From positions 7,378,001 through 7,442,000 of the forward strand of contig JAYWIR010000002.1 of the NCBI GenBank assembly GCA_036172245.1: a DNA stretch of 64,000 bases, written 5' to 3'. Made by a program: the position numbers and the translations under genes. Positions 21,901 through 57,120 of this stretch are shown here, in pieces; position 1 is the stretch's first letter, and every line of letters starts with the position of its first letter. The stretch comes from Raillietiella orientalis. Taxonomy: Eukaryota. The notes beneath the pieces are model-generated. The model did no database searches, had not been told where the DNA came from, and worked only from the letters and a program-made list of their open reading frames with translations.

Positions 21901-24575
21901 GACCGGAGAGAGGCCTAGTGTACGCTCGCGCGCTCGCGGCACCCTCCGCCGATCCTCCTCGCCAGATTCCGGGAGGTGGAACCGCGCGCTTCGAAACAGG
22001 CGCCCGTCGGAGGGCCAATCTCCAAGAGCGAAACCAAGGAGACGGAATGGAAACGGGGGGCATCCAGGAGCGGCACCTTCGAGAACATCTGCGCCTGCAT
22101 CTTCAAAGGGGAGGCGCAGTGATGTCAAAACCGCTTTCCTGGAGGAGCAGCTAAAGCTGGTGCAGATGCCAAGGATGAGGGGGAGGGAAACCTCTCCAGA
22201 CCGTTCAGCCCGGGAAGCAAGGAAGCTCTCGTGCCACCACGCCCGGCGATGGCACATGCAGTCCCTGAACATCTGCGCTTTACGGACAAAAGGACGCTAC
22301 CTCGACCTCGCTTCGATCACTTGTGCTCCTGAGCCACCAGCGGGCCGAGCTTGTCCGCTCCTCGAAGAAAAGGACGCGAAGCCAGGCCGGCGAAGAGTAG
22401 GAGCAGCCGCTCCTTTGCCAACTCTTCGCGCATTCTCCAGCAGCGAGGCTGCTGAGAGGTAGAGCACCCACGGGATCGCCAGAAGGTTTAGCAACGGACA
22501 AGAAGAAGAAAACGCCTTTTGCTGCGGCAGTAACCACCGCTCGAACGCGGCGAACGCACGGGAGAACCTGCCAACGCAGAGCTGGGGACCAGGTGCAAAC
22601 CGGCCGCTGCTGCCCTTCGCCAGCGAGGCCGGCCCCAACAGACTTCGGCGCTGCCCTCTTTCAAGAGAAAGGCTTTGCGCCGATCCGCGGGGGAGTGAAG
22701 AGAAGGGACCGCTCCCGCATCCCTCCGCACGCGGGACGCGCGTCAGTGGAGGACAAGGACATGTCGTCGAGCGCCTCCTTGCCGGAGCGCGCCAAAACAA
22801 AGCACGGTGACTGCATCGGAAACGGAAGGACGGAACGGGAAGACACGCTCCTTCCACCGGTTCGCCTTCTCTGAGCGCCGACCTGCAACCCGGAGGAACA
22901 GATGGGGCAGCCGTCACACGACGCAGGAGAGCACGCGATCGGAAGGCCCGCAGCAGTCGAGACGAGGCGAGGCGGCGCAGAGACGCAGCCGGTGTCAACG
23001 CGGAGCCACCAACGCCGCAGACTGCCGCCCGCCGGCTTGCCCAGCCTTTCCCGCGCTGCGCTGCGCATGCGCTACTCACCTGAAAGACGCTCACAGAAAT
23101 GCGCGTCAGGTAGCCCGGCTGGACGGTAACGTCACTGGTGGAGAGGTAGGGCAGGTCGTACACCGTCCGCAAATACAGCGGGAACTGCAGCAAGGAGTCG
23201 AAGAAGTCGAAGACGGAACCGTTGACGTCTGGCAGGTACCGGCAAAGTCACGCTTTGGAAGGGCTACTTCGCACTTGCCGGACTGTGTCTCCATCTTTAG
23301 CCTCAGCTTGATGAACGAGTTCTGCCCCGGGGTGTCGTGGGAGATGGAGTACCCCAAAGAAGTGAAGCACTTCCCAAAGCCGGTGATGATGCTTCTGTTG
23401 AAGAATTTCTCGCAGCAGATTGTGCCGCTGATCCTCGCTCCCTTGGGCATCACGCAGGACGCGATCATCTCAGGACACCTGGCGCGCGCAAACGGGACAA
23501 CGCGACACTCTCGCAACGCCAGTACGCTTGTCCTCCCAGCATTCACACACTCATCCGTCTCTCGGACCAGACATCCTCCCACTCATCGACCAGCTAGGGA
23601 TGTCGTTACGTGTTGCTGATCTCGTCGAACATGTCCTGTATGGTAGCGTTGCTGCTGCGGGTGTGGTTGGCGTACCAGGCATCCATCCTGGACAGCCACC
23701 CCTCGTCCAGAGCTTCCTTCAGCCACATGCCCAACCCTGCGATGGCGACGTAGTTCCTCTGCTCCTCAGTCCATCCATCGCGCTCTGAAAGAACATCATG
23801 GGCATTGCGCCGTCCCCGCTGCAGGGCGGGCGGATGAGCTCTCGCAGCTGTGTTGTTCAGGTTCGCCCAGCTCCTTCGTGTAGTCCGAGGATGGACAGAC
23901 CGAGCTTTGCAGCTCACGGTGAGCGGACCTCGGAATGCACGCGATACTTCCGAGTAGGAAGTCGGTCATTTCGGGAGCCCGTAAACACCATCGAAGTCCG
24001 ACTTTCGGTTCCAAGGAACGCTGGCGCGTTGGCTGCCTGCTCCTGATAGTAGACCCGGGATCGCGACCCTCGGCTTATCTTCTGCGCGCTTCGGCCGCGG
24101 AAGCAACGACCGCGACCGAGGTTCGAGTTCGGAATGGGGAAGGAAAGATTTTGCATCCTCGGCAAAGCAATTCCCCTTCTCCCTCCCTCTTACGCACACT
24201 GCCGCACCTACCGTGGCGTCGTTGCTGCTTCCTCAGTGGCGACGAAGTGCAAACGATTATAGTGGGAAACTCCATCGAAGACTCAAGCTCCTCCCACTGC
24301 CGAATGCTGACGGTCCTCTGAGTGAGCTGCTGGACGATGAGAAAGATGGTGCTGTAGACGCTCAGCATCGACAAGACGATGACCAGCGTGCTCCAGAACA
24401 GCTTGGCCGCCACGCCCTTGGACCGCCTCAGGTGAGCGAAGCCATGCAGGCTGGTCTGCCGGCAGAACCGCCAGCAAAGCAGCTCGGCGCTCTCCAGCGA
24501 TGGTGCACCGCGCCTCTTCGCCGGGAGCGAGCCTCCGGGCACACCCGTTCGCCGGTACTTCTCGCGGAACATCAT
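9786..24575 (-). CDS. DEG/ENaC (amiloride-sensitive sodium channel, pickpocket/ASIC-like) gene, 9 exons, 1488 nt CDS, 495 aa
   Basis: Exons 24575-24212, 23784-23610, 23478-23279, 23228-23080, 18553-18364, 17791-17711, 17650-17539, 12034-11946, 9913-9786 join in phase with GT-AG introns (one GC-AG). The protein has the TSLHG pre-TM1 motif, TM1 (LFWSTLVIVLSMLSVY), FPTIIVC, GFGKCF, VQPG, CSQRC and TM2 GNLGGIISLAMGGSLISLLE with the G-x-S filter. Confidence 0.9.
11946..12034 (-). CDS. DEG/ENaC exon 8
   Basis: QVIADVHIDFSNHIITHNLYHGVDLLNFI; ctctttcag acceptor and gtatgt donor; phase 2 to 1 fits. Confidence 0.75.
12420..12720 (+). mobile_element. Mariner transposase N-terminal remnant, with a 34-bp tandem duplication (12430-12497)
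   Basis: KLAKSA...LFRRHARFRDGRRSVEDDGRSGRP resembles the mariner HTH and ED..RSGRP linker. Confidence 0.8.
16545..16720 (+). mobile_element. tRNA-derived SINE
   Basis: A-box-like tggccaagttaag and B-box ggttcgaatc; body gtcgtgggttt...ggatgac..tggttga shared with 20545-20695. Confidence 0.6.
17539..17650 (-). CDS. DEG/ENaC exon 7
   Basis: FCSQRCNHTGYLLQWGAYPF...; ctcctcag acceptor and gtgagt donor. Confidence 0.8.
17711..17791 (-). CDS. DEG/ENaC exon 6
   Basis: FGISRSCDPGTIVKSRSQLSNIWNLF; tttcag acceptor and gttagt donor. Confidence 0.75.
18364..18553 (-). CDS. DEG/ENaC exon 5
   Basis: ttccag acceptor, KDLRPIHNNW...FKCVQSY...NCPEALY...MNCIPLFLPAP, gtaagt donor; phase 0 to 1. Confidence 0.8.
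19790..20060 (-). repeat. Second copy of the dispersed repeat at the window start
   Basis: Nucleotide similarity to 75-220 on the opposite strand. Confidence 0.6.
20100..20535 (+). mobile_element. 3' fragment of the L1/Tx1-like LINE family (intronic)
   Basis: gcagcactgtgctg (AALCC) C-terminus, T-rich 3' UTR, ctgccgag...ctcggcag stem and terminal aaacgctccgg motif, as in the cluster copies. Confidence 0.7.
20545..20695 (-). mobile_element. tRNA-derived SINE (same family)
   Basis: On the minus strand: A box tggccacgtgg, B box gttcgaatcc, same body motifs. Confidence 0.6.
21200..22330 (+). mobile_element. Degenerate LINE ORF1 (gag-like zinc knuckle) and possible endonuclease start, different family
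   Basis: QSFQCREL*VHIAQD resembles a CCHC knuckle, followed by an S/A/P-rich tail and QSLNICALR resembling an APE N-terminus. Confidence 0.35.
23080..23228 (-). CDS. DEG/ENaC exon 4
   Basis: VNGSVFDFFDSLLQFPLYLRTVYDLPYLSTSDVTVQPGYLTRISVSVFQ; donor CAG|gtgagt. Confidence 0.85.
23279..23478 (-). CDS. DEG/ENaC exon 3
   Basis: CPEMIASCVMPKG...CCEKFFNRSIITGFGKCFT...LRLKMETQS; GC donor CCG|gcaagt. Confidence 0.85.
23610..23784 (-). CDS. DEG/ENaC exon 2
   Basis: ctttcag acceptor, RDGWTEEQRNY...DMFDEISN, gtaac donor; phases match both neighbouring exons. Confidence 0.8.
24212..24575 (-). CDS. DEG/ENaC exon 1 (HG motif, TM1, FPxIxVC)
   Basis: MMFREK...RFCRQTSLHGFAHL...MEFPTIIVCTSSPLRK; donor G|gtaggt. 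The start ATG is inferred. Confidence 0.9.
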
Positions 24576-26999
24576 CCGACGCCCAATCGTCGGGCCACCC
24601 ACCCAACTTCGCCCCAGAGAGCGCCGTTCCTCCTGGACAAGCGGCGGCGTAGCATCAATTATTCACGGAAGAGGAAGACGCCCTTTAGTTCTGTCCTTTC
24701 GGGGGCCGGCATCCCCAATCGGGGTACGACCGACCGGAGATCCAGCCCGCTCCGCGGAGCGAGACGGTGCTGCGGAGAGCTCCGTCGCCAACACGCCACA
24801 ACGGGAGCGGCCGGTTCCTCGGACCTCGTCACGAGAGGTACTACGGTGTCTCCTCTTCCGCATCATCATCAACTTTCTTGCTGAGAGACAACCTCGCCGG
24901 CGCCCCTAGCGATCTACGGAACGAAAGGCTGTGGGAGGCATGGCGTCTTCGGCAGCCGCGCTCGTCGGGGTATGGCGGACGGCCCCGTCTGCCAACTTCC
25001 ACAGCCTCGAACCCTCGTCCAGCCCTGCCACCGGAGCAGTAGTAAGGCCGGCACCTTGCGCACATTGCAGCTCCCTCGCCGCCGCCAGCGCTGCTACCCG
25101 CAGGGCGGACAGCAGACCGCGGCAACGACTGCCTGCCTATCCCAGAAGCAGCGCCTCTGTCGCTCCGGCTGGACAGACCCCGCCGCCTCCACCTCTTCCC
25201 CTAGTCTCCATCGGCGCGCGACTCTGCCCTAAGCGCGTCCGTGGGCCTCTGAGAACGGGGGAGGAGGGGCAGGCACCGCCGCGAGGCAATGTCCGCTGAT
25301 CTGGGGGGCGCGCGCAAGAAGAGCAATGGAGTCGAAGCCATGAAGAGCGGGCTTCGCTCCCCCATCCATTGCTCCGGTGACCGACGAGAGTGGCTTTTAC
25401 CTGGCGCAGAGGCCCGCGCAAGGCACTGCGCCGCACCGCTCCAACCCTGGTCCGGAACAGCAGCCGCGGGACTTCCGTCGCCTCGCAAAGGTCGCAAGGT
25501 GAGCGGAAGAGGCGAAGTGAGAGTGAACAACGGGAGGGCGCAACGATCAGGGGACTGGGAATGGCAACCCGGGACATTGTGGAGGCTGTGCCTTCTGCGG
25601 GTCCTGCCGTACGGCAAGGCAGCAGCCAAAAGGCACTCAGGAGACCACCAGTCAGGTAGCGGCAGAAAAGTGGACGGAGAAAGGAGGTCCCCTTCAGTTC
25701 GAGGTGTCACCCCTTATCCCCTCCCATGGGCCGCTTCCCTGCGAACTTCCCCCCCGTTCGGGAGCGGACGTTTCGGCGCCACGAGAGCGCCCGTGCCGCT
25801 GCCGCATTGGGAGGGGTCGTCAATCACGGACAGACGGCATCTGGACCCAGCCGAGAGGCAACTTGTCCCGGGAACGAGGAGAGGCCATCGTCCAGAGAGT
25901 CTCCCTGCTCCCTCCATGGCGAGTTGCAACTCCCGATCTTCCAGAACTATGGTCGCGCCTCCCCCGGCCAGCCCAAGGGGACCGCGTAGACCCTCCAGCT
26001 GCAGACGGCAGTCGCTCCGGGGTCCGGTCCGCGTCGTCTCCTGGCAGCCACCATCCCGAGGTTGCATCTGGAACGGACTTTACCTTCTCGTGTCCGCCTA
26101 TCCCAGATTACCCCGGGAAACCACGCTGAGCTGGGATTCGATGCCTACGTCGGTCGCTGCACTTCCGCAGTCGCAGCTTCGTGGTCCTCTTCCCAGTACG
26201 CTGGCGATCGACGACCTTCGCCGACGCGCGAGCGCACACTCGCCATTGCGCGGGCCACTCCTCTCAGAGATCGCTGAGGTCGCCGCAGAGCGCGCCGCGC
26301 GTGAGATTCCCGACAGGCTGCACCGCCGATTTCGAGAACTTCTTCGAAGACCGCAAAACACACTTGCGGACGACGATTTGCGACCCGCGCCCGACGCGCT
26401 CTAGGTCCTTTCCCCTTCCTTCGTCGCCTGGTGACTCATTGACGTCCAATCGCACGCTGGCGCGCCATCGGTCTGTCACCCTGCTGCAGCGGGCTTTCTT
26501 TCCGTCCTTGTCGCCTCGCAACCAGTCTACGCGGCAAGGGCCGAATCTGCTCTTCCGCTTGGTTGCTTATTCGCTCCCGCGCAGCCTCGAGGCCCTCGCG
26601 ACAGATTCCCCTACTCGTCGCCCGCGGCGACCCCACGCCGCGCATCACCAGCGCCGGCCAGCTCGTGGGTCCTGTCATGGGATTGCAGGGAGGGTTCCTC
26701 GGCATCGGTGCGAACTTTGGGCTCCCTGCTGGCCAGGATCGAGCGAGTACCGCGGGAACAGGGGTCCTGTTCTGAAAAGCCCCGAAAGAAGCCGCTTCCT
26801 GCGCAGTCGAAAGCCCTGAGAAGGTGCACCGCGGTCGCCAGGGCACCCGGTTCCCCCGCGCTTCTTCCAGAACCCTTCCCCTTTCGCTACGAGTGTCCAA
26901 CGCAGCCCCTTTGACCATCGCGGGTGGGTCGACCGCAGAAGCCGGTCACACTGCATCCTTTTGGCTGGCAAACACGCGTCTGCTGCGGGCTGATAGATT

Positions 27000-29195: not shown

Positions 29196-30615
29196 CCTGA
29201 TGCAAGCCTGCACGCTTCCCCGTCCAGCAAGCCACCGGCAGCGTGGGGCTCGCGTTCTTCCTTGCGCTCTGTCGCCCCCACAACATCTCCTGCCGCGGCC
29301 CACAGCTTCGGCAGGAGGCTACGCTGAATAAGAATAACAGATATCGTGTCCCCCCTAGCGAGCGGTAGCGTCTGGTTCGAGTAAACCGTACCCTATCCCG
29401 TTCTCCTCTATGCTCCCAGTGCGGAACACTCTAGACAGTAGTCTGTTTGGCGGAGGAGGGCTCCTCCGGGAATTGGATCGACGTGGCGGGATGGCAAATC
29501 CGCTACGAAGGCATAATCTTTTGACATGTCTCTTGTTAACAGCTGATTTTCAAATGGGGATTTCCCAACGAACGCAGTGGAGGTTCTCACCTGGCGCTAC
29601 TCGGAAGTCGCCAGGAGAAAGACGTGACCTTCAAATGCAGAAGCGGATAAAGCGACAGCTCCAGGATGAGAGACTGACCTCGATGACCCTGTTCTGGCTG
29701 TGATGGATCGGCGATTATGCTTTCGCGCCGCCACCGGGGCCGGCAGCCGCCTCCGTCGGATCTCCGCCCTGGGGGCCGCACACTCATGGTTATCAAGCCG
29801 CGCTCCCAAGGATCACGACCCCCAGCGGTGGGAAACAGTGGCAGCGTGGGCAGAGATCGCCCGAGCCCCATCCGATGTACCTGATTGCCCTTCGATTCCC
29901 CGGAAACACCGCCCCAACTGTGGAGACGGAGGGCAGCGACATGTCGCAGCCCTGGGCCAGTCCGATGGCCACTCCCTTCCCTGCAGAGGCGATCTCGAGG
30001 TTCGCGGTGCCTCTCTGAGGGAATCCCGTCGGCGGCAGCTTGTCGGCAAGAAGGGAGAGGCATCCTGCGGGACTCCAAGAGAAATTGTCAGGTAGTTGGA
30101 CCGCTAACCGGCTGACACGGGCGTACGCTGCAACCTACCAAGGACACTCGTCGTAAGGTGAGGCGATCTACGGAAAACTCCGCGAGAACATCCGGTGAGG
30201 CTTCCGGGTGCCCTGCAGCCATCGCACCCCTCCTCCAGTATCGGCGCTTCCTCTGTCGTACCAAGGAGTCCCCTGCGACGCCCGCTGGCACCGCTGGATT
30301 CTGAAGCGGAAAACATGGGAGCCCGCACCGCAGCAGGAGCGGAGAGCGAGGATCCGGCCCTCACCCGCGGCTCCTAAGGGAACCTTTCGCAATTGCTCTT
30401 CAGGTGACGGCGTACGACTCCATGGACGCGTTCCTGTGGCTGTGCTCCCTGCGGGATGCGCCGCTGCCAGCCGCTTCCCGAGGAGCCGCATGAGGCCTCC
30501 GCAAGAATGCGGCGGCCCGGAGCAACGACGCCCGAGAACTGAGACAACATGAAGCGCTCAGTCCAAGAATTCTGCCACCAGTTCCCCCTAGACCCTCTTC
30601 CTTCAGAAGTCGGCA

Positions 30616-31313
30616 TTGCCACTCGGATACGCCAGGACGTTTATTCAAACTCTTCATAACGTCATTACAAAACGTGATACAAGGCCCCACTAACGGCCAA
30701 CATTTCGCAGGACCTGCCGGGACGCCGGGATGCCGATCAGCTGGCTCTCCTCGGCAGTGGAAGGGGATGGGGGAAAAACAAAAAGAGAAATAAAACAAAC
30801 AAAAGAATTTGGAGGGCCGGGAAGGGATCACTGACCACTAAGAGGAGGGTCCATACTTTGCAGGATGCCCTCGAGGTCCTTGTTCATTCCATCCAGCTGG
30901 GGCCATCCGGTAGCTCTCTACAGGAAGCGAACAGCATACGGGATGACGTCCCTCTCGTTGGTGTCTTTATTTTCGGCTTTACTCCAGGCCTCCATAATCC
31001 CACGGATGAGGCCAAGTGCTACTAGGGCTGCGAATGGCTGCAGAGCGTCCCACACGAAGAGAAGGCGCTAAACGTCTCTGGGGTTGCCGCCAACCGGTAT
31101 CCCAAGGGCCGTCCAGAAAAGTTGCCGCAGGGGCCGGAGGGCAGGACAGTCAACTAACAGGTGGGGGAGGGACTCCCGCTCCCCGCACCTGGCACAGTCA
31201 AGGCTTACACTCCCCCTTGTCCAGTGGATGCGGCGGCCGTTGCAAGTAGACCCCAATGCAACAATAGGAGCGCCGACTCCTGCCACTTGAGGGGGAGGAT
31301 CCCGGATTTGGCG
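30616..31313 (-). mobile_element. LINE 3' portion (zinc finger and 3' UTR)
   Basis: CARCGERESLPHLLVDC; AATAAA-hairpin-GGCAA terminus at 30616. Confidence 0.9.
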
Positions 31314-32006
31314 TTGCCACCCGGGTACTCCCTGCGCGTTTATTGAAAACTCTACAAAAACGTGGTACGAGGCCCCACTAACGGCCGCACAACACCGGAC
31401 CTGCCGGGACGCCGGGACGCAGCCCGGCGTGACGCTCCTCGGCAGTGGAGGGGAGTTTGGGAGAAAACAAAAGAAAAAAAAAAATAAAGAAAAACAAAAG
31501 GAGTTTGGAGGGAGGGGAAGGGATCACTGTCCACTAGGAGGAGGGCCCATCCTTCGCAGGATGCCCTCTAGGTCCTTATGCGTTTGTCCCAGATGGGGCC
31601 ATCTCGCAGCTCTTCGCATGAAGCTCACAGCATACGGGATGACTTCCCTCTCGTTGGCATCCACTCCTTCGTCGCGAATGTCGCTCCAGGCCGCCACGAT
31701 GCCCCGGATGCAGCAGAGGGCTGCGAGGGCTGCGGCGGGCTGCAGGGCGTCCCGCACGAAGAGGGGCCGAAGAACGTCTCTGGGCGCGCTGCCCATTGGG
31801 AGCCCGATGGTCGTCCCGAACCGTTCCCACAGGAGTCGGAGGGCAGCACAGTCAACTAGTAGGTGGGAGAGCGATTCCCGCTCCCCACACCTGGCACACT
31901 CAGGCCTTACACTTCCCCGTGTCCAGTGGAAGCGGCGCGCGTTGCAGGGTAGACCCCAGTGCAACAGCAGCAGCGCCGTTTCCTGCCACTTTAGGGGAAG
32001 AAGCCT
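31314..32006 (-). mobile_element. LINE 3' portion with a 10-bp TSD
   Basis: ggatttggcg at 31304-31313 and 32007-32016; zinc finger and 3' UTR present. Confidence 0.9.
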
Positions 32007-34732
32007 GGATTTGGCGGGGGGGGTAGCAACGAAAGGTGCTATCTACAGGCTCGTCGTTACGAAAGGACTCCCAATGTTCGTTGGCCTGGCCGAGTACCGA
32101 GCCTGGGCTGAGCACCAAGCCTGGCAATTAAGGTTGCCTAGCCTGCTGGACGGCCTGGGCCGGGAACATTCGGCCCCGGCTGCGGTAAGGCACCTTGTGA
32201 GTTTTTATTCCTCCCTTTATGCCAGAGCACCTCCGGTACGAGACGACTCGCAGCGCTTGCTCTCGGATGGAGCCTTGGCGATAGGAAAGGAGGAGAGGGA
32301 AAACCTTGATGAGCCTTTCACGACCGGTGAAATTCTCGCCGGTATCCAAAAGCTCAAGAGGCGTAAGGCGCCAGGGGAGGACGGCCTGCCTGTAGAGTTT
32401 TTCCAATGCTTCGCGGCAAAGCCCTGGTGCTCGAGTTGACGAGACTGATCCGAGACGAAGGCGATGTTCCCGCCTCGTTTCGGTCAGCCTGGGTGAGGCT
32501 CCTTCCTAAGGGAGGAGACCTCAGGAAATTGAGCAACTGGCGTCCGATCACGATTGTGAACACGGACGCCAAGTTGTTGGCTAGACTGTGGGCTGCGCGG
32601 CTGGGGCAGGTAGCTGACAGCTTCGTCAGCCCGGAACAGACGTACGCTGTTCCCGGGCGAAGCATGGAAGCGAACCTGTTCTTCGCCAGCACATGGTTCC
32701 ATGTGCAACGCGAATAAAAAAAGAAAAAAGAACGGACTGTCGGCAAATCTGGTTTGGGGGCGCCAGCGCGGCAAGTAAGGGACGACCGGGAAGGGAAGGG
32801 GGCTCTAGCGATCGCAGTCGATCTGCACAAAGCGTTCGATTGCGTGGACCAGGAACTCCTTCTGGAGCTCCTGAATCCCATGGGTTTCCTGGACACCTTA
32901 ACGGCCTACCTGCGCGCCTGCTGGCGCAATGCGATCATCAACGTCTCTTTCAGTGGACAAATAGTGTATGGCGTGCCGGTAAGGCGCGGCATCCGGCAGG
33001 GCGATAGCCTCAGTCCCCAGCTCTTTAGCACCTACTTTGAGTTGGTGCGGAGAGCATACAGGGTGACATTGGCTGCCCTGCCAAGCTCGTGCCCAGGTAC
33101 GCCGGCCGTGTTGACGTATGCTGACGATCTTCTGCTCCTGCTGCCCATGTCCGCCCCAGCTTCGGCAGTCGAGGATTTCTTCGATCTGCTAAGCCGTGGG
33201 ACAGGACTACGAGTGAACAGGACGAAGTCGTCGCTGGTTGCGGTTGGTGCAACGTGGGCAGGACGACCTGATTGGATCCGACTGGGGATCCCCACAGAGA
33301 GGTACTTGAAGTACCTCGGCGTTCCGTTGAGGGACTTCTGCCAGTCAGAAGCCTGGTCAGGTCGTCTCCAGAAAGTGGAGTCGGCGATCGGTCCGTTCCT
33401 GGAAGGCAAGTTTCACTTGCCGAAACGAGCCGCGGTGTGGAACGCGTTCGCGGCTTCCATCCTCCGCCCCCTGCTTTTTGTTTTCCCCATATTCCATACC
33501 TCGCCAGACGTGTGTCCGGGACTGAAGGACTTGCGTCGTACCTTCTGTGCCCCGGCCGGAAGGTCAGAAGATGCGGCCTTCTCCTGGGACGCATGGCCAC
33601 CCTGGCAAAGGAGAACGGGTGGGTGGCCTGCAGCCCCGCCAACTCCAGCGCATGGCTGGAGGAATCCGTTGCGACGTGGGCGAAGTTGAATAACCCAGGA
33701 GCAGAAAATTGGAACCGCCTGCGATTCGGCCCCAACGCCTGCTGCACACTGCGGACCACTTTGGAGTGTCCCGCGAGGAGCACGTGGGCGGAGACCACCC
33801 CTTTGGCATCGACGCTGCCCTTCCTTCGGAGGGCCCTAATCAGCGGCCGGAAGCCGAAGTGGCAAGTCTCCTGCCGTATCGCAGGAAGAGAGAGGAAGAT
33901 GAGCGGGTGGACCATGGGAGAACTGGCAGACGCCACGACCCCGAGTGCCCTCCCGCGTGGACTTCTGAGATGGGGAGAGCTGCTCGGCATCCCGACGGAT
34001 GACCTGAAGTGGCCCCCAGTATTAATCGGATCCAGGCTTCTCCCCCTGAAGTGGCAAGAGTCGGCGCTGCTGCTGTTGCACTGGGGTTTACCCTGCAACG
34101 CGCTCCGCTTCCACTGGACGCGGGGAAGTGTAAGGCCTGAGTGTGCCAGGTGTGGGGAGCGGGAATCGCTCCCCCACCTACTTGTCGACTGTGCTGCCCT
34201 CCGACCCCTCTGGGAACGGTTTGGGACGACCCTCGGGCTCCCGGTGGGCAGCCAACCCAGAGACGTTCTCCGTCTTCTCTTCGTGCGGGACGCCCTGCAG
34301 CCAGCTGCAGCCGTTGCAGCACTCTGCTGCATCCGAGGCATCGTGGCAGCTTGGAGCGATACCCGCGACGGAGGAGTGGATGCCAACGAGAGGGACGTCA
34401 TCCCGTATGCGGTCTGCTTCATGCGGAGAGCTACAGGATGGACCCAGCAGGATACAATGCAGATGGACCTCGAGGGAATCCTGCGAAGGATGGACCCTCC
34501 TCCCAGTGGACTGTGATCCCTTCCCTTCCCTCCAAACTCTTTTTGTTTTTTTCTTTGTTTTTATTTTTATTTTTTGTTTTCTCCCCCATCCCCCTCCGCT
34601 GCCGAGGAGCGTCACGCCGGGCTGCGTCCCGGCGTCCCGGCAGGTCCGGTGTTGTGTGGCCGTTAGTGGGGCCTTATACCACCTTTTTTAGAGTGTTTTA
34701 AAATAAAAGTCCTGGGCATACCCGGGTGGAAA

Positions 34733-35148
34733 CCCAAACTCCCGCAGGTAGGCGGTGCAGGGGGAACTGGCCGCAGAACTCCTGGACCGACCGCTTGAAG
34801 CAGTACCGATCCAGAAGCGTCCGCATCCTGTAGCTCCGTATGAACGCTCGAAGATGTTCCGCCGCGTCCGGGAGCTTCAGCCAGTTCCCAGGCAGACGCC
34901 ATGCTGACGAGGGGGAGGGGCCCTGTCGCGCGAATGAATCTGGAGCACGATCGGGAGATGGTCGGACAGCTCCGACAATAACTTGCCGCGCCTGCCCGCA
35001 AGGGAGCATAGGTGCTGGTCAAGAACACGTGGTCGATGACGTCCCCAATTCCCGGTTCACTGTTCAACAAGTTACATCGGTGCTCACACGTCGTTGTCCA
35101 GATCACGTTCATGATTCGGCCCATCTGGTTGCAGGTGAACGTTAATAC
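34733..35148 (-). mobile_element. LINE endonuclease C-terminal fragment
   Basis: NVHL...IDHVFLT...KRSVQEFCGQFPL, homologous to 48300-48696. Confidence 0.75.
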
Positions 35149-37845
35149 TTCTTACTCGGTCACGTCGGGACGTTCATTCTCATAATCCAGCTGAAAACAG
35201 TTGTTTCCAGCCGAGGACTTCAAAAAACAAAGGAGATAAACCACTGGCACTCAGGCCTGCAAAACGGTAGGTCCGGAACAGGCAGGGAAGAGGGGACTGC
35301 AAAAAAAAAATACAGTCGAAATGGGAGTAAGAGGCCAGAGGACTTTGGTGGCTCTCCATAGTCAGCGGGAAGAAAAAGAATCAAAGCACGAAAAATACTA
35401 CGAAGCAAATGGGAGGTGGGACGCGAAAACAAAAATGAAATCAAAGGGGAATAGACGTGGATCACCAGGATCGCCGTTCCAAACCGTACGTAATCCGGCG
35501 CTAGATGTCGGTGAGTTCCTCCGTTGCGTTTTCGATCAAGTGATGCCATCTAGCAGCCGCGCTGATGAAGTCGGCTGCCTTCCTGGTGACATAACATTGC
35601 TGCCTGGTGTTCTCCAGAACGTCTCGGACTGTGACAATGGCGCAAATGCAACCAACGGTCGAGGTCATCGCTTCCGTCGAAAGTCCTTGTGGTTGGAAGA
35701 ACCGTCGCAGCACTTCACGAGTGGTGCACTCCTGTTGCAGGAGTGCTGCTGCCAACCTCATTCAGAGTTCGTAGGACATCGCTCGTAGGGGGCATCAGAG
35801 TCCAAAAGAAGGTGCGGGAACGACTTTGTCGCCCCGCACCGGGTACAGTAGGGGAAAGCCACACCATCGGAAACTCGGTGCCGCCACTCATCGTAGCGCA
35901 AACCCCTGTGCACGAAGAGCAAAACGTCTTGCTTCCAGGCAAGAGGAAACAACGAACCGTCCAAGCAGCAGGGATGGACAAGTTCAGTTCCCCGAGGTCA
36001 ACACCAAGAGCTCCTCCCCACCGAAGAAGTCCTTTTGCCGTAGCACGAGGAGTGGCAGCATCCACCAGCTCGCTCGTCTCCCATTCGCTGAAGAGTTTTC
36101 CTCTTCCTGCAATGGTGCAGGAGAACTCCCACCTCGCAGGTTGGCTACTGTCTTCTCTAGCCCCGAGAACAGACAGCGCGTCGGCGAGGGGCGTGGCGGC
36201 CAGGGAGGAAAACTTCACCCCGTCCTGCATCACCTCCTCAAGCGACCGAGGAATAGGAATCGACGCAGGGGGCGAAGATTTTCGAGGCTCATTCCCTGGA
36301 ATGCAGCCCAAGACTCAACAGATTCCTACCGTCGAGCATTAAAGTATATTGGGGGCAGGAAATCCACGATTGAGCTTCCAGCAGTGAGGCGAGTTGCCTC
36401 AAAGGATAGCCGAACGCCTGCTTTCTGTGGCGCCTGCCCGGCGCCAACGAAAGAAGTCATTCAATGCCGGAGCACCTACGGAGGACGATGCTCACAGGTG
36501 CACAGAGCGAGGAAGTCCAAAGGTTGGCACACATCCTGAACTACACTTGCAGTCCGATCCGTTCCATCGTCAGGATGTCCAGGCCGGCATTCCGACGTGG
36601 AGCCGCCAAGTCTTTCAGGCAGATCCTGGATCTCTCCGGTCCCCAGAGAGCGTTCCTAAGCAGGCGTTTAACCCGCCGCTTCGCTGCGTAGGGGGAATCT
36701 AAAACAATAAACAGGGGGCGGAGGAGAGCAACCACAAAGGTATTCCAAATAGCCGACCGTTCCGGCAAAGTAAAATTGCCATCAATGAACGGGTTGGCGG
36801 CCAACTCTGCCTTCTGAAGGCAGTCCGACCACGCTTCGGCTGTGCCGATAGCGCCCAACAGAATTCCAAGGTACTTGAAGTACCCGCCTGTGGGGATCCC
36901 CAGGAGGATTCAGTCGGAATGCCCCTCCCACGACGCACCCACAGGCACGACAACGCTCTTCCTTCTGTTCACGCTCACGCCCGCTCCCCGACGAATCAGG
37001 TTGAAGAAATCTGCGACACTGGACGCCGGGGTGCATATGGCGAGCAGAAGAAGCAGGTCATCTGCAAACGCAGCCACGGAAGGCGTTCCCGTGCAAGAGC
37101 TAGGCAGGTACTCGGGCGTTAGCCTGTAGGCCCTCAGCACCAACTCAAAGAAGATGCTGAAGAGCAACGAGCTCAAACTGTCGTCCTGCCCGATGCTCCT
37201 GCTGACGGGAATACCGTACACGTGGCAGCCACTAAAAGTAATACCTCCCCACACAGGAAGGCAGGCTCTCATCGAGGAAGAAGTGATCCAGCGATCTTTC
37301 CATCTTAGGTACGCCGACCATCAAGTTGTTGGCAGGTGAGCGCATGACGCCAGCAAGAGCGCAAGTAGTTCAGAAGCTGAGCCGGGAGACGGAGTCGCTG
37401 CAGAAGTTCCAAGAGGAGTTCCTGGTTCACGCAGTCGAACGCTTTGTGGAGATCGACTGCGACCGCCAAGGCACCCGGCGTATCATCCTGCCGCTTGTGA
37501 CGATGCCTTTTGTCTGCGACAGCGGCCTTTGCCGTTGCCCGCCTTTGCTGCGCTATGCGATCCTGCAGTTGCATCCAGGAGCGGGCGAACAGGAGATTCT
37601 CGTCCATGGACCGACCAAGGACTCGACGATCCTCCCTAGCCCCGCAACCCACAGATTGGAGAACAACTACAAGTCCGAGTTCACCAAGGTGACCGGAGGC
37701 CAGTTGTTCCGATGGCGTGCGTCTCTACCTTTCGGCAAGAGACTCTCCCTCGCTGAGCGGAAGGAAGCCGGGACATCCCCGAATCCCTCATCAGCGACGA
37801 CGACCTTGAAGTTATCTTGCAGGACTGGTAACTTTGGTCCCGGGT
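35149..37845 (-). mobile_element. LINE copy (second subfamily), RT to 3' UTR
   Basis: VDLHKAFD, FADD, KYLGI, CTRCGATKSFPHLLLDS; terminus aatgaacgtcccgacgtgaccgagtaagaa. Confidence 0.92.
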
Positions 37846-38950: not shown

Positions 38951-38959
38951 CCCTGTGCA

Positions 38960-39405
38960 AAAGCGGGGAGGGCATGGGATGCTGAGGTTCAAGGACTTGT
39001 CCAGAAAGGGTGGCTATCACGTTGTACTTGGTGGCGCTCGTGTCCTCGCAGCAACGTTCCAGGTTCCGCAGTGGGGTATGCGATCGGGTGTGCAATTGGG
39101 GGAATTTGCCTGAGAATTGATGTGGATGGGTTGCGTCCTACTCTGCAGCGACGAAATGATTGGCATCGATGTCGCGCTGGCGATTGCCGATCCTTGGGTG
39201 TGGTGCGAAGCAGGAATGACGTGAGGGAGAATATCGGTTTTTGATGGTGCTTCCCTTTGTACGGTTGGTGGGGTTTCTCCATGGGCGCATCGGGATGGTA
39301 CGTACTGCGTGTGCCGAATGTTGGTGTGGTGCTGTCGGAAAAGGTTTGGATAGGGATGGTGGGGATGTTGGTTGGTTATCGCACTGTGTTGCTGATTTCG
39401 GACTT
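38960..39405. repeat. Near-identical duplicate of 52225-52670 (unidentified G/T-skewed element)
   Basis: Direct sequence match with few substitutions. Confidence 0.92.
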
Positions 39406-39479
39406 TGAGGCTTTGGCTGGCTCGTCTCTTTCGCAGCACTGGGCGGTCTCACTCTGGGCGTGTGTCTGATGAAGCCTCC

Positions 39480-45289: not shown

Positions 45290-48200
45290 TTAACGGGGAC
45301 GTTGATCATCCAGATTTTCCGGGGCATTCCTTGTCGAAATTGAAAACACAAAAGTATTGCACAATATGGTCGTCATATGCTTTTCTTGGTTGCACATTTG
45401 GTGCTGCCACTTTCGGGAGACTTGCCGTGAACCAGTGCAGAGACTGGTGAGGTCCTCTCCGTCACCTAAACGGAAGGAAGAGACGAAAGAAAAATAAACC
45501 AAAGGAATTGAAAATTGGGGGAAGGGGATGTTTCTTGGGGAAGGGAGGGATGGGAATGTACCACTGTTTGCCTGGATCAGAACTCGGCATCCTGTTCAGG
45601 ATACTGACAATGGCTGCTTTGAAATTTCTTCGTTGTGATTAATTTGACACGCTCTGGAAAAAGATCGTTGTCGAGTGCAGGACATTACTGCTGTTTTGCC
45701 TTCTTCTTTTGGCGTTCCACCACGCCACGATTCCGCGAGCACAGCTGAGCAGTGCTAGAGACGCGGCGTAGGGCAGAGCATTACGTCTGAAGATGGCCGT
45801 AAAATATTTTTAGGGCCGCCTGCCGTTAGATTTACAATGGACAAGAGTCGATCCCAAAGTTCACGGCGGGCGACGCAGTCCAATACGAGATGCGGGAAGC
45901 CCTTTCACCGCACTCTGCACAACGGGAATCCCCACTCCCTAGTGTCCAGTGAGAGAGGCGTGCTCTGCATGGGATTCCCCCATGCAGCAATAGAAACGCC
46001 GCCTCTTGCCACCCCATTGGAAGGGAGCTCCTGTGCCAATATGCTGGGGGCCACTTCACATCCTCCGGTTGCATTCCGAGCAGCACGCCTCAGCGCATGA
46101 GTTCTTTCGACGCGACACTCGAAGTCGCAGCGTCCACTGCCTGCCGAGTTGTCCACGCTTTCTTTAGTTTTTTCCTGCCTCCAATGATGCAGGACACTTC
46201 CCACGATGCTCGTCCGTTTCTATCTCAAGCGTATCTGAGGTAGATCAGCACGGGAGCAAGGAGGATGGAGGAAGGCCACAGCAATTTGCGTGGGTTGTTT
46301 ACCATCCGCCGCAGGAGCCGTCGAGTGCAAGGACCTCGTCGGAGGTAGGTGGTTTCCACCTCGCTCGAACCATCGATTCTTCCTCATGCGGAAACTGACT
46401 CCTGAAGCCAGGCAGTACAGTTCGCAGGGAGGCACGAGTTCCACGTGTTGTTCCTCATGAGAGCTACCATGTGGCGCAGCTGATGGCCGCATTAGCCCAG
46501 ATTGCGTTTGTATGTTACGACGATCGAGGACAATCCTTTGCAGCCGGTCACTCTGCTGGCGAGGAGTCGAGCGGGTTCGCACCATGGCGTTGTGCACAAC
46601 TTCGCCGCAAGGTCGAGTCTTGGAAATTGGAGCTGTCGCTCCATGAGCTCCAGCGTAAGGAGACCCAATCCACCGTCCCTGCGTGGAGCTCAGAAGTCAT
46701 TGAAGCGGATGCGCTTCCTCGCTGTGCCCCACAGGACTTTCCTCAGGAGGTCCTCGATCCGTATTTTTATCACGGGTGGGGCGGGGCATGGAAAATGTAA
46801 AGGGAGAAGGAGAGGGGCTGCAATCGTGTTCCGCACCGCGGCCCGTTCCTACAAGTGAAGCTTGCCGTTCCCGAACGGGCCGATCACCAAATCCACCTTT
46901 TGGAGACGGTCGGACCAGGCTTCTGCCGCGCAGAAGTCCCTCAACGCAACGTCAAGGTACTTAAAGCACCCGCCCGTGGGGATCCCCAAGCGGATCCATT
47001 CCGGCAGTCCAGCCCACGCCGAGCCGACATAAATCAAGGACGACTTGGCTCTGTTCACTTCCAGGCTCTTCCCACAGCCGAGCAGCCCTAAGAAACCGTC
47101 GAGATCGGAAGCCGAGGTGGACTCGGGGAGCAGCAGCAGAAGATCCGTCTGCGTAGGACGACACGGTGGGCATGCCGGGAAACGTACTCGGCAGAGTTTC
47201 CAAAGTCTCGCTGTATGCTGTCAGCACCAACTCAAATTAGATGCTGAACAGCAGGCGGCTCAGGCTGTCATCCTGCCTTATGCCACGCCGAACCGGCGCA
47301 CGCTGAAACAAATATGTATGAGCGCGAAGCGCCACAGGGATCGCAGATAGGCCAGGAAGACGGTCGGAAATCCCATGCGTTCCAGGAGTTCCAGAAGGAG
47401 TTCCTGGGGCTCTGGTAGCTAGCAAAGACTGGCTCGATTTCACGGGCTGGGAGTTCCAGAAGGAGTTCCTCGTCGACGCAGTGAAATGCTTTACTCAAAT
47501 CGACCGCGAATGCAAGGGCTCCGGACCCGGCTCTTCCTCGTTGACCTTCCTCTCTCTGGTCAGAGGAAACGCGAGGATCCTCTTGACCTGTCTGACCTTC
47601 GCGCTGTAGCGGCTGCCACCATGGTTCTTTCGGGAAAAGCGTAGGTCTGTTCCGTACTGACCACGGATTCTGCCAGCCGTCCAGGTCGCTCAGTTGGGTC
47701 GCTATAATTTGGCAAGCGAATTCGCGTCTGCATTCAGTAGAGTGATGGGCCACCAGTTGCCTACGTTGCGAAAGTCTCCTCCTTCCGGAAGGAGACGTGC
47801 TTTAGCTGACCGGAACGAGTTGGGAACGTCCCCTCGTTTGCGGATCAGCATGCCTAGTTCGAGCACCAGGGGGACCAGCTCTGCCGCGAAGCATTGGTAA
47901 AACTCCGCGGGCTTCCCCTGGTGCCTTTGTTTTTTTGAACTTTCCGATTGCAGAGATAATCTCCGCCGTCGAGAAAGGCTCCTGGAGGTGGTTCCGATCC
48001 TCATCTCTCAACGCTGGGGCACCCTCTGGAAGCAATCGCCACGCAAAGGCGCGCTCGGGTCTTGCTCTCGCGTAATGTGAGGAGTAAAAAAACACGCAAG
48101 ATGTGGCTTACCTGCGCTGGGGATGAGCATTCTCGGCCTTGGGCGTCCGGCAAGCTGGCTGAACCGGATCGTCAGGTCTGCCCTTCGGCCCCAGCTCTGC

Positions 48201-48696
48201 GTTCCGCCAGGCGTCGGACGTCGGCATTCCTGGAGTAGAGACGGAGCTGTAGGTAGGCCCCCAATGCTTCGCCAAAACCCGGGAGAAGACGGTTCAGGGG
48301 TAACTGGTCGCAGAACTCTCGGACTGAGCTCTTCATTTCGTCCCAGTCCGGGGACATCCGCAGCTGGAATTCTCTCAGAAGCGCGCCGAGATGCTCCGCT
48401 GCTCCTGAGAGGCGCAACCAGTCCACTGGCAGGAGCCACGTTTGAGAGGGCTGACCTCTTCCTCGCGGGTGTATGTCGAGCACAAGTCGCGGATGGTCGG
48501 ACAGCTCTGATAAGAGTGCTCCACGATTTGCCACCCGTACGCGCACAGGTGGTCGTCGAGGAGCATGCGATGAATGCTGTTCGCCGCCTCGGCATCTGCG
48601 GCCAACAAGTTGCGCGTGTGCATGGCTGCGCACATCTCGTTGACCATGCGCGCTCGTATATCGCGCGCACACCTGCCACCAGGCGAACGTTAAAGT
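45290..48696 (-). mobile_element. LINE copy or copies: partial endonuclease, RT, zinc finger, 3' UTR
   Basis: FNVRL, EFYQCF, NWWPITLLNAD, VDLSKAF, GIRQDDSLS, YADG, CAECGE. Confidence 0.9.
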
Positions 48697-49760
48697 TTTC
48701 CACTCGGTCACGCCGGGCCGTTTGTTTTCATAAGCCAGTTGGGAAGGAAAGTTCCCAATCGCCGAATACAAGATGCAAAGGGGAGGGTCCTGCGACACGC
48801 AGGCCGGGAAAACGAGATGTCGAGAACGGGTGAGGGAGAAGGGGACAAACAAAGAGAAAAGTAATGAGACTGGGTTAGTTGTGGGACTGGGATCTTGGGA
48901 CGCGCTCCGCACGCACCGGGAAACCAGTCAAAGAAAAGGAAAATACCGGGAAATTTGTGGAGCGACCAGGCACAGGGAATCAAGAAAAAAAAAGAATTTA
49001 ATGAATAAGGGGGGGGGGGGGGTAAAGGGATCTCCTTCTTGGTTTTCTCGTCAAGCTGATGCCAGCTTGCAGCCGCACCGACTTACGTGGCTGCCATCGC
49101 GGTGACATCCCTTCACCGCCTGGAGGTCTCCACCACATTTCGGGATGCGACGATGGCGCGTATGCAACCTACGGTTGCGATCACCGCGCTAGTCGTTTGT
49201 CTTGTCGGTGCGAAGAACCTCCGCAACACATCTCGAGCGGTGTCCTCCTGGTGCAGCAGTGCTGCTATCAGCCTTCGCCATCGTTCATGAAGCACACCGC
49301 AGTCTAAAAGCAGGTGCGAGAACGACTCCGTCGACCCACACCTGCCACAGTTAGGGGAATCAATCCCACGGGAAACACGATGCCGTCGCTCGTTGCACTG
49401 GAAACCCCAGTGCACGAACGGCAGCACGTCCATTCTCCAACCAATTGGAAACACGGATGTGTAAGCACAGTTTGGCGGGACCACTGACACTTCTGGGGCG
49501 ATGTCTAACAGTTCGCCACACCGAACAAGTCCCGAACAAGCAGTTGTGCGCAAAGTAGCAGCATCTGCCACCTGGCGCGTGTTCCAGCCAGCCACCGAGG
49601 ATGTAGTGCAGGAAATCTCTCATCTCGCCGGCAGGCTACTGTCTTCTCTTGCCCTGAGGGCAGACAGCGCTGCGGCAAGGGGAGTGGCGGCTACGGTGCA
49701 CCACTTCGCGACGTCCCCGGCTATCAGGTGCGCCCTTCGCACGTCTGCCTCGGCCAGCCA
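48697..49760 (-). mobile_element. LINE 3' portion (second subfamily)
   Basis: CGRCGSTESFSHLLLDC; terminus aaacggcccggcgtgaccgagtggaaa. Confidence 0.88.
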
Positions 49761-52700
49761 ATCTCGCCGCGTGTCTTCGGGCAACGCAGTGCGTGCAGCG
49801 ACGTACAGCTCCAAAGCGACAGCGACCCTCGGCGCTGGTTGCTTATTTACCGGGGCTGTTTCGCGCGTTCGGGCTGCTCGCCTGCCTACGATTCTTTGCC
49901 TGAGTGGCGGTCTCGAGCAAATCCGGTGGCCGGAATCTTCCACTGCCTTGCTTGTCCGCTTTCGGAATGGGCGCTGCACACTGGCTGCTGCGTTTCCGTT
50001 CCAGGAAGCGGGAAACCGCGTCTAACCGTACACCGCCCAGTGTGAATTCCGAGGCGGAACACTTCAAGTCCTCCGTCGCACGCGTAACCATTCCTGTGTG
50101 AAGAGAAGCGCGCGCAGTTTCCATCCGCCACCGGGATTGTGGGCGCACTTGGGGGCAGGAGGCACCGTCGCAGCTGGAGTCTTTCGGTTGCTCTTCCTGG
50201 TTTGCATCTGACTGCCTTCCTCGTGCGGGATTCGCGTCCCGTGCACTTTTATGTTCTGCCAATTCGTTGCGTGCAGGTGGCTTCCTGGGCGGGATGCCCG
50301 CAGCGACGCGCATCTCTAGCAGTGCTCGTCACTTACTGGACCTCTGCTGCACGAACCCGCATTTCTTCCGATGTTTTCGCTTTCGTGCACACAGTGTTCG
50401 CCATGTTGCCTTTTGCTACACGCGAGCTTTTCGAACCGTGCCCTCACCTCCGTTTGCGGATATGTAGCGGGAATCGGGATGCTGGCAGCAAAGAAAGCAT
50501 GTGCAGGAAGCGTTCAGGGAACCGCGCAACCGCTCCCATGCGTGCGGAGGTCAGGCGTGTTTTCGACGCCGGCTGAGCGAACGAAAATGCGAAACGTATG
50601 ACGTGCGAGATGCGACAGGCGTCATCACGTCCTGCAACCCATCGACGTTCCGAGATTAGAATATTCCGTTTAACGCCTCTTAGCGAGTAACGTGCCTTTC
50701 GAACCATCTTGGAAATCGTTTGAATGCTCGGTGGTCGTGTTCCTGAATGCTGCGTCTCGTCCTTTCCTCTCTCCTCATTCTGAGATGCACTTTCCCTGCA
50801 ATCTGCTCTGCGATCCGAGTGGCTAGCATCCATCGTTCTACCTTCCGAAGACACTGAATGCAGAACTCGCTTGGGATGGTGGCGTATTGCGCCACGTTCG
50901 AGGCAGGGAGTTGCGCTCTTTGCCTCATCCGTTTTCCTCAGTGCTGTCAGATGGTGGGCGACCTCGAAAGCATTCCGTGCTTGCCTGGGCGCTCGCTGGA
51001 AACCGTCGCGTTTCCCCGGGCGCTTCCTTTGCCAGAAATCGGGAAACTGGCTTCCGGATGCCGTCGACCGGACGATCGTGCCACGGAAGCCAGAACGCAC
51101 CGCCGCAGCTGCCAACGACGTCCGCTTGCCTGCGATTCGAACGAAACTGTGCAATTTCTTGCTTGCTGTACTACGCACTCAATCCCGCCACCGTGCCCCG
51201 GAATGGCACGATTCGCATTCGAAGGGTTAGCGCACAGAGGTTTTTCTAGCATGTGTTGATGACAGGGGTATCAGCTGCAAGCTGCTCATGCCTGCTGTCG
51301 TTTCTTCTGCTGTTCGACGACGAAGAAAACACTCACCTCCGCGGCTCCCGCGTACTTGGAAGTGTGGAACCTCTGATCGGGAGAGGGTACTTTGTTCCCG
51401 AAGTGAGCGCACGTGGACTCCCGGTGCGAGCAGTCCAGCTGCCGTAGACTTGCGGACTTGTGTGCTCTCCTTGCGTCGCATTCGGGTGACCGCCGCGTGT
51501 CTGGCGTGCACGCAAGTTTCACGCTCCATCCGTGGCTACGGATGAGAGGCAGAGGCCCCATCGGAAAGAGAACCCTTGCGTTGGGAGCATGAGAACGTCC
51601 CAACTCTGCTGCTCACCACTGAGAAAGTAGCTGTGGGAGTCGTGGGGCGTGTGCCGTGACCGCTGGTTAACCAAAGGATTTGTTGGCTTCCTGCGAACGT
51701 GGCTACAGTAGCGGATGCTCAGCCTGGAATGGTCGGATGGGAGGTGGAAATTGCAATGATGCGCGGCGAGGAATGGGCGATGGCGAGTTGAAGAAGGCTG
51801 GAGAGACGCACGCTGTGTGCTTTCCATCCGTACCTGTTTCGAGTCCGGAAGTATCCTTCGTGTCGTATTTGTTGCTCCTTCAGGGCATATGAGGTGAACC
51901 AAGAGGCACGTTTGTTTGTGGTGGCAACGATCGCGCTGGTGGTGAGCAGGCTGGTGAGCGTTATTTTCCGATGGAATCCTTTCTTCTTGTTTCGTGATTG
52001 CTTGCATTGCGAGTGAGCGCTGTGTACCGCGGGACAGTCGTGTTGGTATTTCGATCGCGCTGACGGGTGCTGCGTGGTCGGTCGGGAAGGGTTCCCGGAT
52101 TCCATGTTGATGCTGCTGGGCAGCTGCACTGTCGCCGTTGACGAGGAGTACGAGGTTGTGGCTTCACAAGTTTCTCGCTGCTGGAAAGGATGGCGGCGCA
52201 TGTGACACTGTGAGTTGCGGTTGCTAAAGCAGGTAGGGCGTGGGATGCTGCATCTCAAGGAGTTGTCCAGCTAGGGTGGCTATCACGTTGTACTTGGTGT
52301 CGCTCGTGTCCTCGCAGCAACGTTCCAGGTTCCGCAGTGGGGTATGCGATCGGGTGTGCAATTGGGGGAATTTGCCTGAGAATTGATGTGGATGGGTTGC
52401 GTCCTACTCTGCAGCGACGAAATGATTGGCATCGATGTCGCGCTGGCGATTGCCGATCCTTGGGTGTGGTGCGAAGCAGGAATGACGTGAGGGAGAATAT
52501 CGGTTTTTGATGGTGCTTCCCTTTGCACGGTTGGTGGGGTTTCTCCATGGGCGCGTCGGGATGGTACGTACTGCGTGTGCCGAATGTTGGTGTGGTGCTG
52601 TCGGAAAAGGTTTGGATAGGGATGGTGGGGATGTTGGTTGGTTATCGCACTGTGTTGCTGATTTCGGACTTTTTCGTGATTGCTGACTCGGCATGGTTGT

Positions 52701-52870: not shown

Positions 52871-54049
52871 TTAATGGAATGTAACTAGTATTTAATGGCG
52901 GAAAAATAATTTCGATTTCGAAAAGGCAAGTCTTCTGGATCATCCTGATGGAAGAAACGGTGCTGCGATTGAGAGGTACTTGGAGTTTGCTTTTCAGCTT
53001 GTCGATTTTTATTTTAGTCTGTAGGCAGCCCAGGTCTCCATCTTCCTTAAAGTTTCTGATGGTAATGGTAATCCTTGCGACATTCTTCAACGCCATATGG
53101 TGACAAATGCATGAAGCAATTCCCTTCCCATCCGGTTTCCTAGTTTTGACCTCACGTTGCCTTTCAGCCAAGAGATCAGTTGAGCATCAGACGTCAATGA
53201 TTACTAGGATCTTGTATTGGTTCAAATTATCCTCATGTTGTTAGCCCGAAGGATTCGGGTTTACTCCACCTGGTTGTCACATGAAATGAAAATGGGACAA
53301 TTTCGAATTGACTCATTTTGCAAACAGTTGTTCCACGTGACAACGGAGCTCCTCACGAATAACGTGGTTAAGCATGAAAATGCTACAAGCAGTGCTTCGA
53401 AGCGTTTGAAGTACGTAACTGATAAATGTTTACAAAAGGGAGTAACGGTGAATTCAAAAAATGAATGTCATCTTGATATGCATGCCCACGATTTGATTCA
53501 AGAATTACAAGAGCACATTTACGCTTATTTAGGTTATAAAATGAAAACGTTTGCAGTCGGAACACGCCGCCCACCACGCAATGGAGAAGCTGGAAGAATA
53601 AACCGTGCAACACGAAGAAGGAAGATGTTTGTCCAGGGCAAAATCTACGGCATGTTAGATCACTCCCCATATTAGAGGTGAATGCATCACTGGTACCAAA
53701 ACAAACACACCCGATGGCAAAATGTGCCACGACCCTCATGATGCCTTGTTTTATGGTTCTTATCAACAGCCTTTCAAAATGAGGACGTGAAAACACAATT
53801 TGTTCATTTCTTCCCTTATATTTTAATGCAGTAATAAATAGAGTGAAGTGAGGCCACGCTTAACCAAGCTACTAGATCAAGAATTGAAATGATATATATC
53901 TATATAGAAATAGTATACATCATAATTTTACATTGTGAAAGAATGTTATTCCATAATTATATAGAGAAGATTTGAAAAACTTGGTCAACGTATTTTCTAT
54001 TACATTGTGATGAAAAATATTTTCATTTTTGCTTCGGTTTCGGGCGACA

Positions 54050-54400: not shown

Positions 54401-54404
54401 AATC

Positions 54405-55310: not shown

Positions 55311-55311
55311 G

Positions 55312-55367: not shown

Positions 55368-55369
55368 TC

Positions 55370-57115: not shown

Positions 57116-57120
57116 CTTTC

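Follow-up and report, generated by a model that had tools for sequence, protein, structure and literature searches.

Two LINE insertions at one nucleotide

How do two long interspersed nuclear elements (LINEs) come to end in antisense at exactly the same nucleotide of two diverged relatives? This question is raised by a stretch of 64,000 nucleotides from Raillietiella orientalis, hereafter the window (contig JAYWIR010000002.1, positions 7,378,001 to 7,442,000; G000:C2:7378001-7442000 in our numbering of the genome, which comprises 210 Mb in 491 contigs). A preliminary description made from its sequence alone had proposed that the LINE family concerned targets a fixed site in its own second open reading frame (ORF2), within the linker between endonuclease and reverse transcriptase (RT). 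Judging from copies compared throughout the genome, we are likely dealing with an L1-group LINE lineage now divided into about a dozen subfamilies, with apurinic/apyrimidinic-type (APE) endonucleases that recognise different codon-encoded sites of 10–14 bp in their relatives.

Both junctions were found again in the window. Host A, read directly on the forward strand, shows cagttccccta at 30579–30590 followed by 25 nt to 30615, and an antisense 3' end starts at 30616. Host B on the reverse strand shows cagttccccctg at 34769–34758, likewise followed by 25 nt to 34733, with a 3' end stopping at 34732. The intact ORF2 used as reference (L071:2179-5823) places both junctions one base past codon 311. 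The antisense end beside host A is present as described, but it consists of two 3' fragments of about 690 bp in tandem (30616–32006) and not of one. All four synonymous codon pairs by which hosts A and B had been said to differ are present; over 29 codons the two hosts have 7 synonymous and 13 non-synonymous differing codons and share 65% nucleotide identity.

Genome-wide census of 3' ends

To the exact 27-nt terminal pattern of the family there are 156 matches in the genome, of which 153 were viewed with about 50 nt of flank and classed by eye. In 61 cases the 3' end abuts codon 311 in the ORF2 of a family member, in antisense (one with only about 28 nt of linker), and in 32 it stands in tandem, that is against the duplication and the 5' end of an earlier copy. 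A second site is shared by 35 further ends, which lie in sense orientation in the ORF1 of a relative, about 340 bp before ORF2, and represent a sister subfamily that we call gamma, while 25 are located elsewhere. From the last class 20 loci were fetched, of which 3 proved to be tandems on truncated copies and 1 another family site. Every antisense linker flank tested maps to ORF2 codon 310–311 (one by extrapolation). As 61 of the 153 viewed ends have it, the shared codon-311 junction is far beyond chance, and mapping the flanks of the 3' termini, which the preliminary description had recommended, thus leads to a fixed antisense target nucleotide in the linker with 61 direct and 32 tandem cases. 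The idea of self-targeting holds in so far as the hosts, 47–98% identical to the reference protein, are relatives, but most of them are sister subfamilies (47–85% protein identity) and only few belong to the inserting subfamily itself.

Private sites of the subfamilies

In all the DNA fetched for this analysis 142 different 3' ends were identified, and the subfamilies were separated by their 3' untranslated region (UTR) and by a C-terminal tree that retained 58 of 115 sequences. For alpha the site lies after ORF2 codon 311 (G-F-G), in antisense, and for gamma in ORF1 near codon 444, in sense; about ten further subfamilies have a site of their own, several of them at APE or RT motifs. Epsilon is found in sense at codon 171, the APE GDFN motif (52 of the 100 matches listed, 109 in total), and beta antisense at codon 285 (9 and 1 tandem of 10, by eye). 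Kappa uses codon 1068 (18/27, by eye), iota codon 80 (5/9, by eye), eta codon 72, and theta and zeta the RT motifs at codons 502 and 588, the latter with five 5' junctions and one 3' junction.

The attack is reciprocal, with alpha hitting beta at codon 311 and beta hitting alpha at codon 285. In the host type that alpha2 occupies most often, the 5' end is in turn joined to codon 285 of alpha or gamma copies (L037, L049, L055, L076, L078), and the homologous sequence of this host type differs from the codon-285 target that it uses. The host of gamma is the zeta type, which itself occupies codon 588 in alpha copies (L032, L081); gamma hits zeta, and zeta hits alpha and gamma. Subfamilies of one target mostly form clades of their own in the C-terminal tree, surface segments of the endonuclease vary among the subfamilies, and their APE endonucleases are 60–92% identical. 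An alpha2 copy also has a gamma-type 3' end at its ORF1 codon ~478, in sense (L082:1841 and L097:6031, the same junction), which possibly marks a minor second gamma site.

How the site is chosen

The preliminary description had called the target poorly conserved. This is true of the two decayed copies in the window, but 38 on-target flanks give the clear consensus CNCCRAADCC. The 14-bp motif CCCY|CNCCRAADCC matches the genome 580 times against 53 matches for the reversed control, under the end constraints of the pattern, and 62 of the first 100 matches are codon-311 sites of the family (by eye). The family is the main source of the motif since its conserved G-F-G-E-G codons encode it. Off-target flanks keep the CNCC core, with C at positions 1 and 4 in 17/17. 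Of the 77 copies of host type H1, 26 are filled, compared with 0 of 93 copies of a sister type that has T at the cut and is changed at and near this position (Fisher p 7e-11); both types are about 32–35% distant from alpha. From reading the alignments, the gamma site seems to resemble the alpha motif shifted by one base.

These data speak to the earlier suggestion that homology or structure guides the insertion, in which case an R-loop, a guide segment of the RNA or a DNA structure would mark the site. Such guidance would fit with targets that lie nearly all in relatives and with off-target sites lacking the full motif, and the duplicate mismatch in gamma described below hints at RNA-templated 5' junctions. 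It is nevertheless very unlikely, as hosts of equal homology with few differing bases at the cut are hit in 26/77 versus 0/93 copies, the closest relatives are not preferred, and sense and antisense sites both exist. In addition, the 3' 320 nt of the element contain no guide-like match to the target beyond shuffled controls (best scores 7–8 versus a shuffled mean of 7.0–7.6), and outside of them and of the homologous codon region only short target matches occur (score ≤12). Targeting thus looks motif-based by sequence and not homology- or structure-guided. Separately, the 3' UTR begins with a C-rich stretch resembling the alpha target; this stretch was considered as RNA guide and rejected, because it is common to subfamilies with other targets.

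Two further observations concern the duplications. Off-target duplications measure 12–17 bp versus 9–13 bp on target (L034, L047, L091, L094–L096, L102, L104, L108–L110), a hint that the second nick might also be set by sequence. In full-length gamma copies (L056, L060, L061, L067, L068) the left and right duplicates often disagree at two bases, which hints at an RNA 5' end carrying target-like sequence.

A further possibility is that no true site specificity exists and that a weak CNCC preference, chromatin targeting to LINE-rich clusters as in Zepp or Celine, and survival bias act together. Copies do cluster, for example on contig C5 at 2.3–2.6 Mb and on C13 at 2.4–2.6 Mb, LINE sequence of >1.7 kb is present in 14 of 20 contig ends chosen near matches, and the off-targets retain CNCC alone, but this account leaves unexplained why each subfamily uses one nucleotide and one strand in a C-rich element of 5.6 kb and why sister subfamilies use different sites within the same clusters. 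We regard it as quite improbable and, as the sole cause, contradicted; chromatin may have a helper role.

Independence of the insertions

The insertions at codon 311 are independent of each other. Inserts only 1–8% apart sit in hosts 27–52% apart, and among the 630 pairs formed by 36 junctions 22 combine inserts ≤8% apart with hosts ≥25% apart, such as L080 and L088 with 1.2% and 35.7%, respectively. The hosts of these junctions fall into 17 clusters at 15%, and the trees of inserts and hosts disagree. With a median dN/dS (ratio of non-synonymous to synonymous rates) of 0.24 for 112 distant pairs among 16 open-frame hosts, coding constraint is evident, so that both the proposed divergence of the hosts while active and the comparison of phylogenies advised in the preliminary description came out in its favour. 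Both host halves are present in 11 of 40 loci, where the host resumes at codon 309–310 beyond the 5' end of the insert; target duplications of 9–13 bp were found in 10 of these 11, with three different insert 5' ends. Uninterrupted codon-311 sites are listed in 56 rows, 2 of which are filled junctions.

That the junction was inherited, a single ancient nested insertion or a few of them having been multiplied as composite units by segmental duplication or 3' transduction, is highly improbable despite the correlation of insert and host distances (r=0.42), the recurring multi-element arrangements (L052/L056/L059) and a few exact duplicate junctions, as near-identical inserts occupy such distant hosts, the hosts differ mostly at synonymous positions, the 5' ends of the inserts vary in loci that keep both host halves and the duplications, and empty sites are abundant. 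For alpha, this composite amplification is largely ruled out by the discordant distances and trees.

Anatomy and affiliation of the element

Full-length copies of about 5.65 kb contain ORF1 and an ORF2 of 1215 amino acids (intact in L071), the latter with an N-terminal APE endonuclease and an RT (matches to Exo_endo_phos and RVT_1). ORF1 carries CCHC zinc knuckles, which are a feature of the Tx1 clade; zf-CCHC matches near the Pfam cut-off were obtained for 8 of the 9 non-ORF2 frames scanned. The solved structure nearest to ORF2 is human L1 ORF2p (E 8.5e-52, compared to E 7e-16 for R2). Named RT relatives are of the L1/Tx1 type and about 30–33% identical in RT (named Tx1 proteins 31–33%), and a full-length protein search returned only relatives of 31% identity or less. 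In an RT tree (FastTree; 155 of 177 fetched proteins and 7 of our own copies, no R1/Jockey reference included) the family is monophyletic with a support of 1.0 and joins a group with BAC82609.1 and an alligator TX1 protein at a support of 0.1 only. The element is best classified as an L1-group LINE with APE endonuclease.

At its 3' ends AATAAA is followed by a short hairpin and then by four variable bases, and poly-A is absent. The terminal hairpin folds in 4/4 3' ends tested; compared to shuffled sequences only epsilon folds better (z −2.95, others 0.5 to −1.3), and we claim no significance for the structure. Copies are 5'-truncated with variable 5' ends, and target-site duplications range from 9 to 17 bp overall. 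By eye, the 3' UTR of alpha, gamma and theta shows another short hairpin about 25–60 nt upstream of AATAAA, whose loop could pair downstream and which carries a compensating change in gamma. It is possibly a subfamily-specific RNA recognition structure.

Proposed mechanism and its weak points

In the model that we prefer, with endonucleases reading different motifs, conserved ORF1 and ORF2 codons of related copies would supply the recognition sequences. The endonuclease would read its motif and presumably nick the G-rich strand of the host after codon 311, the RT would prime at this nick on the hairpin-ended RNA, as in established target-primed reverse transcription, and a second nick 9–13 bp away would lead to the target duplication. 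The duplicated target would remain usable, which would give tandems and, after repeated rounds, nested clusters, and each insertion would destroy an ORF of a relative.

Several observations weigh against this model. The full motif is present in 0 of 17 off-target flanks, about 36 among the first 100 matches to the motif lie outside the family (by eye), and many family sites with a perfect motif are empty, including 51 of 77 in H1 and those of several abundant types; because of these three points, local chromatin or clustering may contribute to target choice. The host that is not hit, with copies 2–10% apart, could partly post-date the activity of alpha2, although young alpha1 inserts only 1–2% apart stand against such a late origin. 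The endonucleases of alpha and gamma share about 90% identity yet have different sites, gamma is not cleanly apart from alpha1 in the C-terminal tree, and the sites at codons 110, 368 and ~1083 and at ORF1 codon 165 are represented by one or few junctions each. In 29 of 40 loci no second host half stands beside the insert, many inserts being cut by another subfamily or rearranged. Finally, the correlation of distances for the 36 junctions means that some of them are probably segmental copies, so that counts exceed events.

The same data might reflect an arms race among sister LINEs, in which endonucleases are aimed at coding motifs of relatives, the G-F-G-T variant is an escape form, and target switching rather than host silencing drives diversification. 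We put this forward tentatively, as a possibility that falls a little short of being probable; the non-hit variant and the reciprocal sites favour competition over a safe haven, but drift could explain them.

Nested insertions and other features of the window

From about 28 kb on the window consists mostly of nested LINE fragments. Host A (30527–30615, forward strand) is a decayed linker remnant of about 90 bp, which ends one base after codon 311 and is 76% identical to the host type of L071/L078/L080. It is followed on the reverse strand by insert 1 (30616–31303), a 5'-truncated 3' fragment with ORF2 codons ~1047 to the end and the 3' UTR of a diverged codon-311-targeting subfamily, by a 10-bp target-site duplication (31304–31313), by insert 2 (31314–32006), a 5'-truncated alpha 3' fragment placed in tandem where insert 1 had produced the duplication, and by the left copy of the duplication (32007–32016), which runs on into the RT side of element X. 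The host A side matches the duplication at 32007–32016 and 31304–31313 in only 5/10 bases, and therefore the two flanks of the tandem perhaps derive from different copies. Both window inserts (5' ends at 31303 and 32006) and the truncated copies in L034 and L107 end near the same point, element position ~4950, and the former two show short microhomology with the duplication end.

Element X (32007–34732, forward strand) comprises the linker from codon ~309, the RT (32424–33482), the C-terminal domain and the 3' UTR, with an internal deletion of codons ~803–877. It is the host of inserts 1 and 2 and lies itself antisense in host B, and its terminus (34702–34732, forward strand) has AATAAA, a short GC hairpin, 4 variable bases and no poly-A. 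Host B (34733–35148, reverse strand) represents the second half of the APE endonuclease and the linker, codons ~171–311, and was cut at codon 311 by X and, apparently, at about codon 171 by an epsilon copy (35149). This decayed epsilon-type element (35149–37801, reverse strand) has its 3' end in sense at the epsilon site of host B, the position of which follows from the flank of the epsilon element, as direct mapping begins at codon 199. A related copy with uninterrupted linker is located at 45904–48846 (reverse strand; ORF2 codons 223–1097 in a single alignment), and at 60267–60532 the 3' end of another subfamily (reverse strand) lies against ORF1 codon ~165 of a family copy (forward strand).

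Outside of these elements, a Pfam scan of 25 further window frames gave 1 match. A frame at 24078–24662 (reverse strand) matches the amiloride-sensitive sodium channel family (ASC, PF00858; E 1.7e-12) and is predicted to be an exon of a host gene beside the LINE cluster. A 451-bp direct repeat, 97% identical, at 38956–39406 and 52222–52672 shows no match to the LINE reference, and positions 54001–58000 have a strong negative GC skew (−0.42 to −0.51) and low GC with no tandem repeat reported.

At contig ends, the 14 cases mentioned above come from a biased sample (L111–L130, near matches), and in them sequence from family ORFs amounts to >1.7 kb. The assembly thus appears to be interrupted within nested clusters, and the mutual targeting would explain why this is frequent. 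Contig C13 terminates, within its last 3 kb (L117, G000:C13), in (TTAGG)n, the telomeric repeat typical of arthropods, and a cluster of the family lies about 45–125 kb away.

Comparison with known systems

Transposons are among the known targets of LINEs (PMC4640811), and the Tx1 clade includes Tx1L in Tx1D, the crocodilian Tx1-Mar in Mariner and Tx1-9_AMi in Harbinger, and Tx1-8_Crp and Tx1-4_AMi in long terminal repeat (LTR) elements (PMC4494074). A LINE is considered target-specific there if >20% of its flanks lie in one target (PMC4494074); here 61/153 (codon 311), 35/153 (ORF1 site) and at least 52 of the 100 epsilon matches listed (109 in total) exceed this value. Like our family, the target-specific Tx1 LINEs combine APE endonuclease and RT with a fixed site in another transposon, close families have different targets, and tandem insertion occurs (PMC4494074). 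In the text consulted, the targets named comprise DNA transposons, LTR elements, small-RNA genes, satellites and microsatellites, with no LINE of the same lineage (PMC4494074), whereas here coding motifs of sister subfamilies are targeted, with reciprocal attack.

In the R1-clade elements TRAS1, SART1 and R1Bm the site is set by an APE endonuclease that reads about 10 bp; in Tx1L, too, it is the endonuclease that determines the site, and in swaps between TRAS1 and SART1 the site is reported to move with the endonuclease (PMC1919474). The R1-clade elements are members of a different group, with telomeric repeats or ribosomal DNA as targets (PMC1919474), while our ORF2 is nearest to human L1. 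The family offers a natural series of close APE endonucleases with known, different targets, by which a switch of LINE specificity becomes directly testable, and a candidate for transposon-versus-transposon competition with an escape variant.

Group II intron twintrons of Methanosarcina acetivorans also home site-specifically into related retroelements, which gives a perpetual target and nested arrays (PMC4424553). These introns are RNA-guided ribozymes able to splice out (PMC4424553), whereas our LINEs cannot and destroy an ORF with each hit, and their targeting appears to be protein-based.

Zepp and ZeppL of green algae, to which the family was likened from their descriptions, are L1-group LINEs nesting in their own copies, with clusters rich in 3' fragments (PMC3446292, PMC8226300). 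Nested insertion giving tandem 3' fragments is found here as well (32/153 and window 30616–32006). Zepp is described as forming one nested cluster, a putative centromere, per chromosome (PMC3446292, PMC8226300), while here several clusters lie on single contigs (C5, C13, C26), in a pattern other than one per chromosome, contigs not being whole chromosomes, and many subfamilies each use a different nucleotide, mostly in antisense. The poplar centromeric LINE Celine also lands mostly in other transposons and sometimes in itself, but with regional targeting and a unique duplication per insertion (PMC11288735), whereas here the nucleotide is fixed.

In the open-access literature, the scope of our search (with Repbase reports and subscription journals outside it), we found no description of mutual site-specific targeting among LINE subfamilies. 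Target-specific LINEs riding on other transposons and self-nesting are already known; what our search did not return is one lineage with about a dozen subfamilies that have private, nucleotide-precise sites in each other's ORFs.

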